Positions 1 through 15,730 are shown, counted from the first letter of the whole stretch. The stretch is DNA of 63,855 nucleotides, filler included, from Reclinomonas americana ATCC 50394 (GCA_048213135.1; 14 parts of 14 records of this genome joined end to end with filler, not necessarily neighbours in it); one strand, 5' to 3'. Notes: generated by a model from the letters alone, not told the origin. Translations and numbers: made by a program.

Positions 1-595
1 CTGTTTTGTCATAACTTCCACTGACAACGAGTTGACCGTCTGGAGTAATGGCCACAGACTGAACCCTGTCTGCGTGACCCGTCAACCGTCGCACTTCCTC
101 TCCGCTCGCCAGCGACAGAACGCGCACTGTTCTATCAAGGTTACCACTCACGACGTGCAGACCATCGGGTGTGACGGCGATAGCCAGCACTAGCCCACGG
201 TAGACCCCCAGCTGACGCACTTTTTCACCGTGCAACACTCGCACAGTGGTGTCACCTATGACAAATCGACCATCGTGTGTGGCGGCGACGCATCGCACCC
301 ATCCAAAGTCCCTCTCGACCTGTCGCACCTCCTTTCCACTCGCCAGCGACCACACTCGCACAGTTGTGTCATGGCTGCCACTCGCAATGTGCTGACCATC
401 GGGAGTGACAGCGACAGCGGCAACCGATCCTCTGTGTCCCTCCAACCGTCGCACTTCACGCCCACTGGCCAGCGACCACACTCGCACTGTTCTATCACCA
501 CTTCCGCTCACCACATGCTCACCGTCGGGAGTGAAGGCCACAGACATCACCGCACCCGCGTGTCCTTTCATGCACATGGGCAGGAGAGACGACAT
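1..595 (-). CDS. WD40 array copy 1 (3' part runs off the window)
   Basis: ATG at 595; open frame MSSLLPMCMKGHAGAVMSVAFTPDGEHVVSGSGDRTVRVWSLASG... down to base 1; 5' end nearly identical to copy 2. Confidence 0.9.
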   Translation of the reverse strand, partial: MSSLLPMCMKGHAGAVMSVAFTPDGEHVVSGSGDRTVRVWSLASGREVRRLEGHRGSVAAVAVTPDGQHIASGSHDTTVRVWSLASGKEVRQVERDFGWVRCVAATHDGRFVIGDTTVRVLHGEKVRQLGVYRGLVLAIAVTPDGLHVVSGNLDRTVRVLSLASGEEVRRLTGHADRVQSVAITPDGQLVVSGSYDKT

Positions 596-783
596 TGTAA
601 CAGAGAGGGAAGAATGGAAGGTGAGCGCAACGACGGGTGATGGAACGAAAGATGTGTGAGGGACGGACACGAATTCCTTCTTTGAAGTTCGTTGCCTCGT
701 TGCCAAGGCCACGTTTTGCTATGTTTCTCTATGCGAGCGACAAGAACAAGAACAAGACTCTCGTGCCAGTTAGTTGCCTTCAT

Positions 784-1842
784 TCACCAATGCATCTCGG
801 GGTAACAGCCGAATCGAAAGAGCGCCGCTTCGGCCTCCTCCACCAAGAAGCACCGCAGCACCATCTCCGGCAGGCATCGCGCTTCGAATCCATCTTCTGC
901 TCCTCCTCCTTTCTGCATCTCCTGCACGGCTTGCAGAGCCCGTCGCGCACAATAGAGCTCACGGCCGACCAGGCCGTACAGCGAAGACCACACTCGCACA
1001 ATGCCGTCGGCGCCACCGCTCACAATGTGCTGTCCGTCGGGAGAAACGGAAACAGAGGTCGCAGGACCTTCTTGTCCCTCCAGCCGTCGCACCTCCACTC
1101 CGCTCGCCAGCGACCACACTCGCACTGTCGCGTCTTCACTCCCACTCACAACAAAGTGGCCATCGGGAGTGATGGCGACGGAACGCACCGCGTTAGTGTG
1201 TCCGTACAGTCGTCGCACCTCGTCACCACTCGCTAGTGACCACACACGCACTGCCGTTTGATCACCTCCACTCACGACATATTGGCCGTCTGGAGTGATG
1301 GCCACAGAGAGAACCCTGCCCAAGTGACCGTACACGAGTCGCACCTCCTCTCCGCTCGCCAGCGACCAAACGCTCACTGTCCCATCACGGTTACCAGTCA
1401 CGGCGTGCTGACAATCGGGTGTGACGGCGATCGCATGCATCACTCCAGAGTAGACCCCCAACTGACGCATTTTTTCACCGTGCAACACTCGCGCATAGCT
1501 GCCACCTGCGACAAACCGACCATCACGTGTGGCGGCGACGCACCACACCCATCCAAACCCCTCGAACCGTTGCACTTGCTCTCCACTCGCCAGTGACCAC
1601 ACTCGCACAGTTGTGTCATGGCTGCCACTCGCAATGTGCTGACCATCGGGAGTGACAGCGACAGCGGCAACCGATCCTCTGTGTCCCTCCAACCGTCGCA
1701 CCTCCTCTCCACTCGCCATCGACCACACGCGCACTGTTCTATCACCACTTCCGCTCACCACATGCTCACCGTCGGGAGTGAAGGCCACAGACATCACCGC
1801 ACCCGCGTGTCCTTTCATGCACATGGGTAGGAGAGACGACAT
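784..1842 (-). CDS. WD40 array copy 2 (7 WD repeats, third shortened, plus conserved C-terminal tail)
   Basis: 352-aa intronless ORF of GH..V.SVA.TPDGQH.VSG..D.TVRVWSLASG repeats; tail ...RCLPEMVLRCFLVEEAEAALFRFGCYPEMHW. Confidence 0.93.
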   Translation of the reverse strand: MSSLLPMCMKGHAGAVMSVAFTPDGEHVVSGSGDRTVRVWSMASGEEVRRLEGHRGSVAAVAVTPDGQHIASGSHDTTVRVWSLASGEQVQRFEGFGWVWCVAATRDGRFVAGGSYARVLHGEKMRQLGVYSGVMHAIAVTPDCQHAVTGNRDGTVSVWSLASGEEVRLVYGHLGRVLSVAITPDGQYVVSGGDQTAVRVWSLASGDEVRRLYGHTNAVRSVAITPDGHFVVSGSEDATVRVWSLASGVEVRRLEGQEGPATSVSVSPDGQHIVSGGADGIVRVWSSLYGLVGRELYCARRALQAVQEMQKGGGAEDGFEARCLPEMVLRCFLVEEAEAALFRFGCYPEMHW

Positions 1843-2029
1843 TGAACAGAGAGGGAAGGGTGGAAGGTGAGCGCAACGACGGGCGATGGAACGAAAGATG
1901 TGTGCGGGACGGACACGAATTCCTTCTTTGAAGTTCGTTGCCTCGTTGCCAAGGCCACGTTTTGCTATGTTTCTCTATGCGAGCGACAAGAACAAGAACA
2001 AGACTCTCGTGCCAGTTAGTTGCCTTCAT

Positions 2030-13327: not shown

Positions 13328-14413
13328 TCACCAATGCAGATCGGGATCTGTGCGACACCGGAAAAGCACCACTTCCGCTTCCTCCACAATGAAACAGCGC
13401 AGCACAATCTCTGGCAGGCATCGCGACTCCAGCTCTTCTTCTTGCAGTTGCTGCAATTCTTGCACAGCCTGCATGGCCAGTCGCGCTTCGTGCAGCTCGC
13501 ACTGAGCGAGACCGCACGGCGAGGACCACACGCGCACCGTGTTGTCATATGCGCCACTCACGATGTGCTGACCGCCGAGAACGGCAGCGACAAAGACCAC
13601 GCGTTCAGTGTGTCCCTCCAACCGCCGCGCCTCCTCGCCACTCGCCAGTGACCAGACACGCACCGTGCAGTCTCTGCTGCCACTCACAACGTGCTGACCA
13701 TCGGGGGTCACGGCGACAGACCACACACAATCAGCGTGGCCCTCCAATCGCTGCACTTCTTCGCCAGTTTCCATCGACCACACTCGAACCGGGTCGTCAT
13801 CGCCGCCACTAACCACGTGCTGACCATCGGGAGTGACAGCGACACACATGACCCACTCAGTGTGTCCACTCATTCGTCGCACCTCCTCACCAGTCTCCAG
13901 CGACCACACGCGAACCGTGTTGTCATCGCCTCCACTCATCACGTGCTGCCCATCGGGAGTGACAGCGACAGAACTGAGTCCCCGGGTGTGTCCAACGAGA
14001 CAGTGTGTCTCCTCCCCCGACTCAAGCGACCACACGCGAATCGTCTTGTCGTGACTTCCACTCACGGCACGCAGACCATCGGGAGTGGCAGCAACAGACC
14101 ACACTGTGCTAGTGTGTCCCACCAACTGTCGCACTTGCTCGCCGCTCGCAAAGGACCACACGCGCACCGTGTTGTCTGCGCTGCCACTGATAATGTGCTG
14201 GATGTCGGGAGTCACCGCCACCGATTGCACCTCACTCGTGTGTCCCTCCATTTGTTGCACTTCTTCTCCACTCGCTAGAGACCGCACTCGCACGGTCATG
14301 TCCATGGAACCAGTCACAAAGTGTTGGCCGTCGGGGGTGACCGCCACACAGAGCACGTTGCCGGTGTGTCCCACCAGGCAATTGTGAGAGCGCGAGAAAG
14401 TGGTGTGCGACAT
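13328..14413 (-). CDS. WD40 array copy 11 (recent duplicate of copy 10)
   Basis: Start MSHTTFSRSHNC at 14413; N-terminus identical and tail nearly identical to copy 10. Confidence 0.93.
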   Translation of the reverse strand: MSHTTFSRSHNCLVGHTGNVLCVAVTPDGQHFVTGSMDMTVRVRSLASGEEVQQMEGHTSEVQSVAVTPDIQHIISGSADNTVRVWSFASGEQVRQLVGHTSTVWSVAATPDGLRAVSGSHDKTIRVWSLESGEETHCLVGHTRGLSSVAVTPDGQHVMSGGDDNTVRVWSLETGEEVRRMSGHTEWVMCVAVTPDGQHVVSGGDDDPVRVWSMETGEEVQRLEGHADCVWSVAVTPDGQHVVSGSRDCTVRVWSLASGEEARRLEGHTERVVFVAAVLGGQHIVSGAYDNTVRVWSSPCGLAQCELHEARLAMQAVQELQQLQEEELESRCLPEIVLRCFIVEEAEVVLFRCRTDPDLHW

Positions 14414-14650
14414 GGGGGAGGGTGGGAAAAGAGAGTGAGTGGGGAAGGGAGCGCTGTGAGTGCTCCCAGACGACGGATGTGAAATGCATGTGAGGACGCT
14501 GTACATGTCCGTCCAACAACGTCGACTTGTCGCTCGGCTGACAAAGCCACTGATTCGGCTATTGCGGGAGGTCAAGCACAAACTCGACGCGTGTGAGACA
14601 AGGACAAGAGTTTCACTGACGATGAATGAGGTATGCCTTCCGAGCAAACT

Positions 14651-15730
14651 TCACCAACACATGTCGGGATTCGCGCTGCAGCGGAACAGCACCACTTCCG
14701 CCTCCTCCACAATGAAACAGCGCAGCACCATCTCCGGCAGGCAACGCGACTCCAGCTCTTCTTCTTCTTGCAGTTGTTGCTGCAATTCCTGCACGGTGTG
14801 CATGGCCAATCGCGCTGCGTGCAGCTCACACTGAGCAAGGCCACACGGCGAGGACCACATGCGCACCGTGTTGTCATAGCCGCCGCTCACAATGTGCTGG
14901 CCATTGGGTGCGACGGCGACTGATTTGACCCATCCAGTGTGGCCCTCCAGTCGCCGCACCTCGTCTCCACTCGCCAGTGACCACACGCGCACGGTCTTGT
15001 CACCACTTGCGCTGACAATGAACTGGCAGTCGGGTGTGATGGCCACGGACCACACCGTGCTTGTGTGGCCCTCGAATCGGTGCACCTCCTCGCCACTTGC
15101 CAGGGACCACACAATCACAGCAAAGTCATGACCCCCGCTGACAATGTGCTGACCGTCGGCGGAGACGACGACACACATCACGGAATTATCGTGCCCCTGC
15201 AGCTGTTGCACCTCCTCCCCACTTGCCAGTGACCACACCCGTATCGTCAGATCGAAACTTCCACTCACCACGTGCTGACCGTCGGGAGTGACAGCGACCG
15301 ACAGCACCCAGCCCCTGTGCCCCTCCAACCGCCTCACCTCCCCGCCACTCTCCATCGACCACACTCGCACAGTCCGGTCCGCGCTTCCACTCACCACGTG
15401 CCGACCATCGGGAGTGACGGCGACCGAAGACACCCACCACGTGTGACCCGTCAACTGTCGCACTTCGTCACCACTCTCCATCCCCCACACTCGAATGGTC
15501 TTGTCATTCAAGCCGCTCGCACTGACCACGTGCTGCCCGTCGGGAGTGACGGTGACGTGGCGCACCTGGTCGGTGTGTCCCTCCATGCGTCGCACTTCTT
15601 CGCCGCTCATCAGCGACCACACGCGCACAGTCATGTCCTTGCTGCCGCTCACCACGTGGCGACCGTCGGGGGTGATGGCGACGGACCACACGCCGTCAGT
15701 GTGGCCCAGGAGGCTCTTGTGGGAGGTCAT
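14651..15730 (-). CDS. WD40 array copy 12
   Basis: Probable start MTSHKSLLGH at 15730; 7 WD repeats plus tail ...FRCSANPDMCW. Confidence 0.93.
   Translation of the reverse strand: MTSHKSLLGHTDGVWSVAITPDGRHVVSGSKDMTVRVWSLMSGEEVRRMEGHTDQVRHVTVTPDGQHVVSASGLNDKTIRVWGMESGDEVRQLTGHTWWVSSVAVTPDGRHVVSGSADRTVRVWSMESGGEVRRLEGHRGWVLSVAVTPDGQHVVSGSFDLTIRVWSLASGEEVQQLQGHDNSVMCVVVSADGQHIVSGGHDFAVIVWSLASGEEVHRFEGHTSTVWSVAITPDCQFIVSASGDKTVRVWSLASGDEVRRLEGHTGWVKSVAVAPNGQHIVSGGYDNTVRMWSSPCGLAQCELHAARLAMHTVQELQQQLQEEEELESRCLPEMVLRCFIVEEAEVVLFRCSANPDMCW

Follow-up and report, generated by a model that had tools for sequence, protein, structure and literature searches.

A tandem array of stand-alone WD40 propellers with a variable top face and a constant C-terminal tail in Reclinomonas americana

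We analysed a 63,855-nucleotide stretch of DNA (hereafter the window) from Reclinomonas americana ATCC 50394 (GCA_048213135.1), in which 14 parts of 14 records of this genome are joined end to end with filler. A head-to-tail row of WD40 genes, all on the minus strand, fills the first 15.7 kb of the window, and each intact gene encodes one seven-blade propeller with a conserved C-terminal tail. In this family, the residues that vary on the propeller's top face change as fast as or faster than expected under neutrality and have a composition of binding type, while scaffold and tail are strongly conserved. We suggest, with belief and doubt in about equal measure, that the proteins are lineage-specific binders with different targets, coupled by their constant tail to one common partner.

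What the analysis establishes is how the genes are built, where they vary, that selection differs between these sites and the rest, and how the genes were duplicated. Each member is a small, stand-alone protein with one closed seven-blade WD40 propeller and a constant two-helix tail, and would act as a cytosolic binder. The family grew by old tandem duplications of whole genes, with occasional recombination between neighbours producing mosaics and keeping 3' ends alike. Selection at the protein level holds scaffold and tail almost unchanged, whereas replacement of top-face residues on all seven blades has given each paralogue a different Trp/Arg/Lys-rich surface. Ligand binding by the face, a coupling role of the tail and any biological role of the family are inferred: the variable face would bind a distinct partner in every paralogue, while the tail, being invariant, would tie all members to a single shared partner or assembly.

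An array of single-propeller WD40 genes

In the array, the family comprises nine intact open reading frames (ORFs) of 352-364 aa, a copy cut by the window's edge, a degenerate copy and a tail fragment on its own. The genes are referred to as g01 to g11 in order of position. A reading made earlier from the sequence alone (the sequence-only reading) had described a tandem, co-oriented array of seven-WD40 genes, and these copies, all on the minus strand, bear it out. The nine intact proteins all match Pfam WD40 (PF00400), with E-values from 9e-46 to 6e-79 and 5-7 stretches each. A hidden Markov model (HMM) of the repeat unit, trained on 24 clean units, recognises 71 units of 42 residues each: seven in every one of the nine intact genes, five in the edge-cut g01 and three in the degenerate g04.

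An AlphaFold2 model of the g09 protein, built with the eight other paralogues as alignment input, agrees with this count, as well as with the earlier claim of one 7-blade propeller of ~42-aa repeats per gene. It is a closed seven-blade propeller with 28 strands (mean predicted local distance difference test score, pLDDT, 88.7; predicted template modelling score, pTM, 0.85). The propeller spans residues 11-297 of the model, in which an N-terminal strand (11-14) completes blade 7, and strands a, b, c and d correspond to unit positions 8-13, 19-24, 28-33 and 39-44. In Foldseek, the g09 model reaches target-normalised template modelling scores of 0.96-0.98 to 5yzv and 7big. The closest solved structures are consensus-like propellers of bacterial or designed origin, namely Thermomonospora curvata 5yzv, WRAP-T 7big and Nostoc 2ymu (38-39% identity, ~0.8 A root mean square deviation), none of which covers the tail.

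Little else is encoded by these genes. Only 5-16 residues lie ahead of the first unit, and the spacers between genes leave little room for additional exons, such as those of a NACHT domain or an N-terminal effector. No NACHT was found among the 25 best Pfam families shown for each protein, nearly all of which are WD40 or propeller families. The absence of a NACHT/NOD domain and the presence of a different C-terminal module, both anticipated from the sequence, are thus confirmed by Pfam scans of the proteins and of the tails.

Variation is concentrated at four positions of the unit

Units were numbered from the Leu located two residues ahead of the Gly-His pair, which places the landmark residues at G3, H4, V8, D26 and W32. 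Over 47 ungapped units, entropy is highest at positions 25 (3.58 bits), 9 (3.53), 7 (3.34), 27 (3.08), 6 (2.85) and 2 (2.66), while positions 3, 4, 11, 22, 26 and 32 are near-fixed. These peaks fall where the sequence-only reading had placed the variation, just after GH and in SG-x-x-D-x. Its "almost invariant" scaffold needs qualification: the scaffold is conserved, yet units are only ~55% identical in protein.

Judging from the strand boundaries of the model, positions 5-7 and 9 belong to the d-a loop or the start of strand a, and positions 25 and 27 to the b-c turn. According to Paoletti et al. 2007 (PMC1805685), the d-a loop and the b-c turn form the top interaction platform of the WD propeller. 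As the sequence-only reading had proposed, the variable sites thus lie on one face of the propeller, in two top-face loops, and are not scattered.

One unit with a one-residue insertion (g06 unit 6) was excluded from later counts, which leaves 46 units. Among them, 43 distinct four-residue combinations are found at positions 7, 9, 25 and 27. Variation at these positions affects all seven blades, with 4-8 different residues among the nine genes. The composition of these sites is unusual, as Trp accounts for 21 of 184 residues (11.4%, versus 1.5% expected), with Lys, Asn and Met also enriched and Val, Pro and Gly depleted; because these counts treat units sharing ancestry as separate, their significance is overstated. 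The Trp excess argues against a plain loss of constraint.

Whole-gene duplication and mosaic exchange

Units within one gene average 55% identity in protein and 64% in DNA, with 50% identity at third codon positions, and the best pair of different blades is 79% identical. Where two blades share an amino acid, the codon is also shared 55% of the time, versus 43% expected from codon usage, so that the scaffold is kept by selection at the protein level and not by recent homogenisation. When each unit is compared at the DNA level, its closest counterpart sits at the same blade index in 27 of 46 cases (6.2 expected; none of 2000 label permutations reaches the observed value) and in the same gene in a single case. 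As blades group by index and not by gene, whole seven-blade genes were duplicated, and repeats were not shuffled or homogenised in the manner of the Podospora HET-E/D repeats.

The nearest paralogue nevertheless switches from blade to blade, which shows that recombination between paralogues occurs. The youngest pair, g09 and g10, shares the sole long tract with at least 85% identity (units with flanks, 1471 bp), and the identity of these two genes is 0.91-0.93 in blades 1-3 and 0.79 in blade 5; in blade 6 they are not nearest to each other. In g02 and g03 (784-3106), the tails are 0.89 identical and the downstream spacers nearly identical, while blade identity is 0.69-0.76. The g11 tail is 0.90 identical to that of g09, with blades at ~0.7. 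Neighbouring 3' ends (tails and 3' spacers) are thus homogenised by recombination. Altogether, the array results from old birth-and-death tandem duplication with mosaic exchange, which has left a pseudogene and a fragment.

Selection on the variable positions

Selection was evaluated with our own GY94-type likelihood on nine genes and 325 gap-free codons, with branch lengths shared by the site classes and a single nucleotide tree. At codons 7, 9, 25 and 27, which were specified a priori (22 codons), the ratio of nonsynonymous to synonymous rates (omega) is 1.48 (twice the log-likelihood difference, 2dlnL, 9.71; p = 0.0018), versus 0.22-0.25 in the scaffold and 0.20 in the tail. This contrast supports the sequence-only reading. 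When each of the 42 positions is given its own omega, values above 1.1 are obtained only at 7 (1.66), 9 (2.07), 25 (1.77) and 27 (1.12), with position 5 at 1.04. The six most variable positions, selected post hoc, yield 1.28 (p = 0.02), and the other top-face positions (2, 5, 6, 10, 27) yield 0.95. Codons 7, 9, 25 and 27 have an omega of 1.52 in the right sub-array (p = 0.006) and of 2.74 in the left one (p = 0.002). Under a neutral simulation (omega = 1, fitted tree), the mean estimate is 0.99 and none of the 300 data sets reaches 1.49. Pairwise Nei-Gojobori ratios of nonsynonymous to synonymous divergence (dN/dS) range from 0.22 to 0.43 in the scaffold and from 0.09 to 0.51 in the tail.

Several points weigh against a set of selected binders. 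The excess of omega over 1 is modest, and no single position is significant after correction for 42 tests. In the youngest clade (g08-g10), omega is 1.29 (p = 0.24), and five pairwise ratios (1.46, 1.44, 1.29, 1.42 and 0.77) are all non-significant (Fisher p 0.12-0.89). Most pairs of paralogues are close to saturated at synonymous sites; this saturation, the analysis of recombinant copies on one tree and the simplicity of the model may distort the selection test. The assignment of the variable sites to the top face comes from the strand order of the model and from PMC1805685, not from inspected model coordinates. Six units score below 25 bits with the unit HMM, several blades of the left half are degenerate and scaffold dN/dS amounts to 0.60 between g01 and g02, so that some copies may be decaying. 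Finally, divergence of the binding face is expected among paralogues of any WD40 family and does not imply an arms race.

These points bear on the alternative that survives best, which is ordinary divergence of old paralogues: relaxed drift, or one partner switch that is now stable, would account for the differences, and the copies would form no repertoire. The copies are indeed old, with a synonymous divergence (dS) in the scaffold of 0.17 (g01/g02), 0.28 (g09/g10) and up to about 0.9, and a paralogue dS of up to about 1, values which also make the earlier term "fast-evolving" doubtful. Their blades retain positional orthology, and both the non-significant pairwise tests and a youngest-clade omega indistinguishable from 1 are what this explanation predicts, as is the value of 0.95 at the other top-face positions. 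It accounts less well for an omega of 1.48-2.74 across the full gene set and each sub-array, unmatched by any of the 300 neutral simulations, or for change that spans all seven blades, and the non-neutral, Trp-rich make-up of the sites marks them as selected and not free. On balance, we regard it as rather unlikely. Only orthologue or population data can separate it from the binder-set reading.

A conserved tail with few relatives

The tail, of about 65 residues, directly follows blade 7. It has 16 invariant columns across the 11 aligned copies of the window (11/11), with an invariant L..LRCF..E core, and eight columns stay invariant when three proteins from outside the window are added. In the g09 model, two tail helices are predicted at residues 299-323 and 330-357 (pLDDT 60-75). 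When the tail is folded alone (13 sequences), helices are predicted at positions 3-29 and 38-61, separated by an ill-defined acidic or glycine-rich linker; with a pTM of 0.38, this isolated model does not predict that the helices pack against each other. Along helix 1, hydrophobic residues occupy 7 of 8 a/d heptad positions and form a stripe, and helix 2 is hydrophobic all round. Prediction of a tail homodimer gave a score of 0.01 and a mark of 0.32, which count neither for nor against self-association.

Known domains were not recovered in the tail. A Pfam scan of three tails with E-values up to 10 returned a single, chance-level match to TASL (E 0.028, below the cut-off), and neither an F-box nor a SOCS box. 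A profile search of the PDB with the tail returned a single cupin match at E 1.9 and no true sequence match. The ESM Atlas contained no neighbour of the tail, and no relative was detected in a word-indexed search of proteins of 199-636 aa or in JGI metagenome contigs. Readings of the tail as an F-box, a SOCS box or a coronin-like element were rejected, as neither sequence nor fold supports them. We also rejected as spurious three matches in viral contigs, which were pattern-only and located in short ORFs lacking WD40 repeats.

A profile of the tail searched against 1.84 billion representative proteins identified three matches (P0121, P0122 and P0123), none of which is bacterial by name. The first one is a 116-aa fragment of a Reclinomonas americana protein derived from expressed sequence tags (EST; EukProt), 55-66% identical to the window genes over the last blade and the tail. 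The EST origin of this protein shows that a jakobid transcribes a family member. The other two proteins (381 and 394 aa) have the same propeller-plus-tail layout, with irregular, non-consensus blades, and are just 23-28% identical to the window genes. This layout, being present in such distant proteins, therefore predates the array. In all three, as in the array, a WD-type propeller ends in a tail with the CLPEM.LRCF motif core. The array's own proteins are absent from the public protein collections searched. Judging by sequence, the tail is a new small orphan module, with three relatives in the protein data searched.

A constant tail under strong purifying selection (omega 0.20, 16 invariant columns) would also be expected if the proteins were interchangeable substrate receptors, the tail docking on a shared enzyme, such as the metacaspase encoded within the array, as a two-gene version of the bacterial metacaspase-WD40 proteins, or a cullin-type ubiquitin ligase, as used by F-box/WD40 and SOCS-box/WD40 receptors, and the face picking the substrate. 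The metacaspase gene (Peptidase_C14; 7119..8471, plus strand), which is not a family member, lies between g06 and g07 and has regions that presumably correspond to the His and Cys motifs. Peptidase_C14 also occurs in at least two of the 120 listed WD40 relatives, and among the domains combined with bacterial metacaspases WD40 is the most frequent (10.9%; PMC3501461). We nonetheless consider this explanation improbable, given that the adjacency of the metacaspase is a single case, that the tail has no F-box or SOCS-box match in Pfam (E up to 10) nor any sequence match in the PDB, and that it is modelled as two long helices and not as a three-helix box.

An immune role of the family is possible by analogy. 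In its most explicit version, innate recognition in a jakobid-like protist would take place without NOD-like receptors (NLRs): each face would sense a different protein, foreign (bacterial or viral) or altered-self, and the tail would recruit the metacaspase of the array, leading to proteolysis or cell death. We view this version as a long shot. If true, the array would represent a eukaryotic version of the metacaspase-WD40 sensors of bacteria, split into separate genes and reached through gene duplication and not through repeat shuffling.

Finally, it is very improbable that the array is foreign or decaying DNA, namely a transferred bacterial-type WD40 or giant-virus part amplified without host function. 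In favour of this origin, the genes are intronless (that is, uninterrupted ORFs as judged from genomic sequence alone), share one orientation and are separated by short spacers, in surroundings where genes carry introns; they include one pseudogene and one fragment, and their nearest listed WD40s are bacterial or designed (Nostoc, Thermomonospora 5yzv, 2ymu; 38-55% identity). Against it, 9 of 11 copies are intact despite a dS of up to about 1, with a scaffold omega of 0.22, and their GC content at third codon positions (0.61-0.75) falls between the extremes seen in neighbouring host ORFs (0.44-0.88). In addition, the three matches of the tail in 1.84 billion proteins include no prokaryotic or viral relative, and a relative is transcribed in a jakobid.

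Comparison with known WD40 systems

The binder-set reading has its closest precedent in the NWD/HNWD genes of Podospora anserina (het-e, het-d, het-r), whose products share with the array 42-residue WD units and a conserved scaffold. PMC1805685 reports positive selection in the Podospora WD repeats at codons 7, 9, 25 and 27, on either side of the conserved positions 8 and 26. An excess of replacements at these codons, in the d-a loop and b-c turn of the top face, is thus found in the array as in HET-E/D, provided that the two numberings are equivalent, as the text of this source implies (positions 8 and 26 conserved; loop positions). In both systems, unit combinations are near-unique (43 of 46 in the array, 55 of 69 in Podospora).

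The two systems differ in other respects. Unlike the Podospora NLRs, the array proteins lack NACHT and an N-terminal effector, carry an orphan C-terminal tail and have a fixed number of seven units (seven in all nine intact copies of this one genome window, and fewer in the degenerate g04). Unit identity is ~55% in the array, versus ~85-100% in Podospora. Array units keep their positional orthology, whereas Podospora repeats evolve in concert and are exchanged within and between genes, so that diversity arises from whole-gene duplication and mosaic recombination in the former and from repeat shuffling in the latter.

The sequence-only reading had gone further and likened the array to HET-D/HET-E for "the same pattern of high internal identity". 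This part of the comparison does not hold, as blades of one gene are only 41-61% identical on average (maximum pairwise unit identity, 0.76). None of the nine array genes reaches the HiC threshold of PMC4986451, namely more than 85% repeat identity over at least 100 aa. In the classification of Hu et al. 2017 (PMC5587647), a WD40 protein counts as highly repetitive if it has six or more repeats and every pairwise identity is at or above 0.7, and as moderately repetitive at or above 0.4. Array values on this scale are 0.29-0.55: no gene is highly repetitive, seven of nine are moderately repetitive (0.45-0.55) and two lie below.

The array also resembles prokaryotic repetitive WD40 proteins (2ymu, 5yzv and the designed 7big) in its consensus-like units with a TPDG-type a-b loop, and the old repetitive cases of PMC5587647 in that internal identity is maintained by purifying selection. 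It departs from prokaryotic repetitive WD40 proteins in being eukaryotic, single-propeller and stand-alone, with an orphan tail, and in not being part of a STAND, kinase or Roco protein. Metacaspase-NACHT-WD40 proteins are widespread (PMC3501461), and the bacterial metacaspase-(NACHT)-WD40 architectures are similar to the array in associating a propeller with a caspase-family protease. In the array, propellers and protease are encoded by separate genes on opposite strands, the protease is eukaryotic and intron-bearing, and the association consists of adjacency only.

Receptor families of cullin-RING ligases (F-box/WD40, SOCS-box/WD40 of the WSB type, nematode F-box) combine a constant docking module with a variable binding domain, form tandem clusters and show positive selection on the binding part. 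The array shares this design logic. It differs from the F-box and SOCS-box receptors in that its constant module is C-terminal, is modelled as two long helices and lacks an F-box or SOCS-box signature. The Gcp1-3 WD40 proteins of jakobids, which belong to the mitochondrial type II secretion system pathway, are described as Pex7-like (PMC8134430) and were left aside. Our literature searches, which did not extend to the supplements of PMC8134430, yielded no description of this propeller-plus-tail family.

WD40 domains that pair a constant scaffold with a hypervariable, selected top face are thus already known, both in NOD-like receptors of fungi and in STAND-type proteins of bacteria, whose diversity arises by shuffling of near-identical repeats. 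What the array adds is a eukaryotic host, propellers that stand alone and carry an orphan tail, and diversity obtained through gene duplication, with the same four codons varying in an early-branching eukaryotic lineage that has hardly been sampled. Should the face be a selected binding surface, the array would have arrived at this structural solution by a different genetic route, and the family would provide a compact natural set of propellers in which one scaffold carries many faces, useful for studies of specificity. The partner of the tail would reveal what the family is for.

Layout of the array

The leftmost copy, g01 (2..595, -), is truncated by the window's left end and encodes the N-terminal 198 aa with five units; the array may therefore extend past this edge. 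It is followed by g02 (784..1842, -; intact, 352 aa, seven units, of which unit 3 is degenerate, and tail) and g03 (2030..3106, -; intact, 358 aa, seven units, of which unit 6 is degenerate, and tail). The degenerate copy, g04 (3269..4067, -), consists of three units, a frameshift, approximately one further unit, a 100-nt N mask (3442-3541) and the tail. Being frameshifted and short, with fewer blades, it is probably a pseudogene. The most divergent member of the family is g05 (4119..5186, -), an intact ORF of 355 aa in which units 5 and 7 are weak and the tail lacks its last four residues. An intact gene of 353 aa, g06 (5300..6361, -), is followed by the lone tail fragment (6513..6608, -), which encodes the last 32 residues of a tail without a propeller and adjoins another N mask (6644-6743). 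As N masks adjoin both g04 and the lone fragment, part of each of these two copies is hidden.

Beyond the metacaspase gene, all copies are intact: g07 (8773..9834, -; 353 aa), g08 (10164..11258, -; 364 aa), g09 (11582..12673, -; 363 aa), whose protein was modelled and whose tail is encoded by 11585-11785, g10 (13328..14413, -; 361 aa) and g11 (14651..15730, -; 359 aa). The length of g10 is counted from the start homologous to that of g09, an in-frame ATG being present upstream at 14506; similarly, g11 is counted from the homologous start, its ORF remaining open up to 15994. Searching the window beyond 15.7 kb with one propeller and three tails (tblastn) revealed no further WD or tail copy.

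Spacers between family genes measure 51-654 nt, a wider range than the 50-400 bp first proposed, to which the 2.4-kb gap containing the metacaspase must be added. A 21-nt motif occurs four times on the minus strand (9965-9985, 11390-11410, 13137-13157 and 14520-14540), versus 0 copies expected by chance, and is confined to the right half of the array. As it is found in the g07-g11 spacers only, the duplicated unit includes the spacer. In addition, a long CT-rich tract occupies the 40-100 nt just ahead of every start codon (for example, 9835-9935, 11259-11360, 12674-12790 and 15731-15890). Together with the shortness of some spacers (51-187 nt), these tracts may reflect polycistronic transcription with 5' processing, the acceptor of an intron in the 5' untranslated region or a pyrimidine-rich promoter.

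Neighbouring genes in the window

The metacaspase gene fills the 2.4-kb gap between g06 and g07, and its coding sequence is split over several reading frames, which indicates that introns are present. Its exon ORFs include what we take to be SGHG-type His and DSCHSG-type Cys regions. Elsewhere, the window contains ORFs for NMD3, a kinesin, a class I tRNA synthetase and a response-regulator/cyclase protein, all split or ordinary eukaryotic genes. The latter corresponds to same-strand ORFs at 44511-47796 (-), which encode a pair of response-regulator receiver domains together with the catalytic domain of an adenylate/guanylate cyclase and may form one multi-exon signalling gene. The NMD3 exon lacks close relatives, with 66% identity to its best match and 53-59% to the best named ones, which agrees with a sparsely sampled eukaryotic lineage, plausibly a jakobid. 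Throughout the window, pairs of 44-N runs located 12 bases apart occur 13 times, every 3-6 kb, and appear to be masks rather than assembly gaps. Finally, long ORFs at 27697-28995 (-) and 60546-61223 (-) match fibronectin type III and collagen triple-helix repeats, which are unusual domains in a protist.

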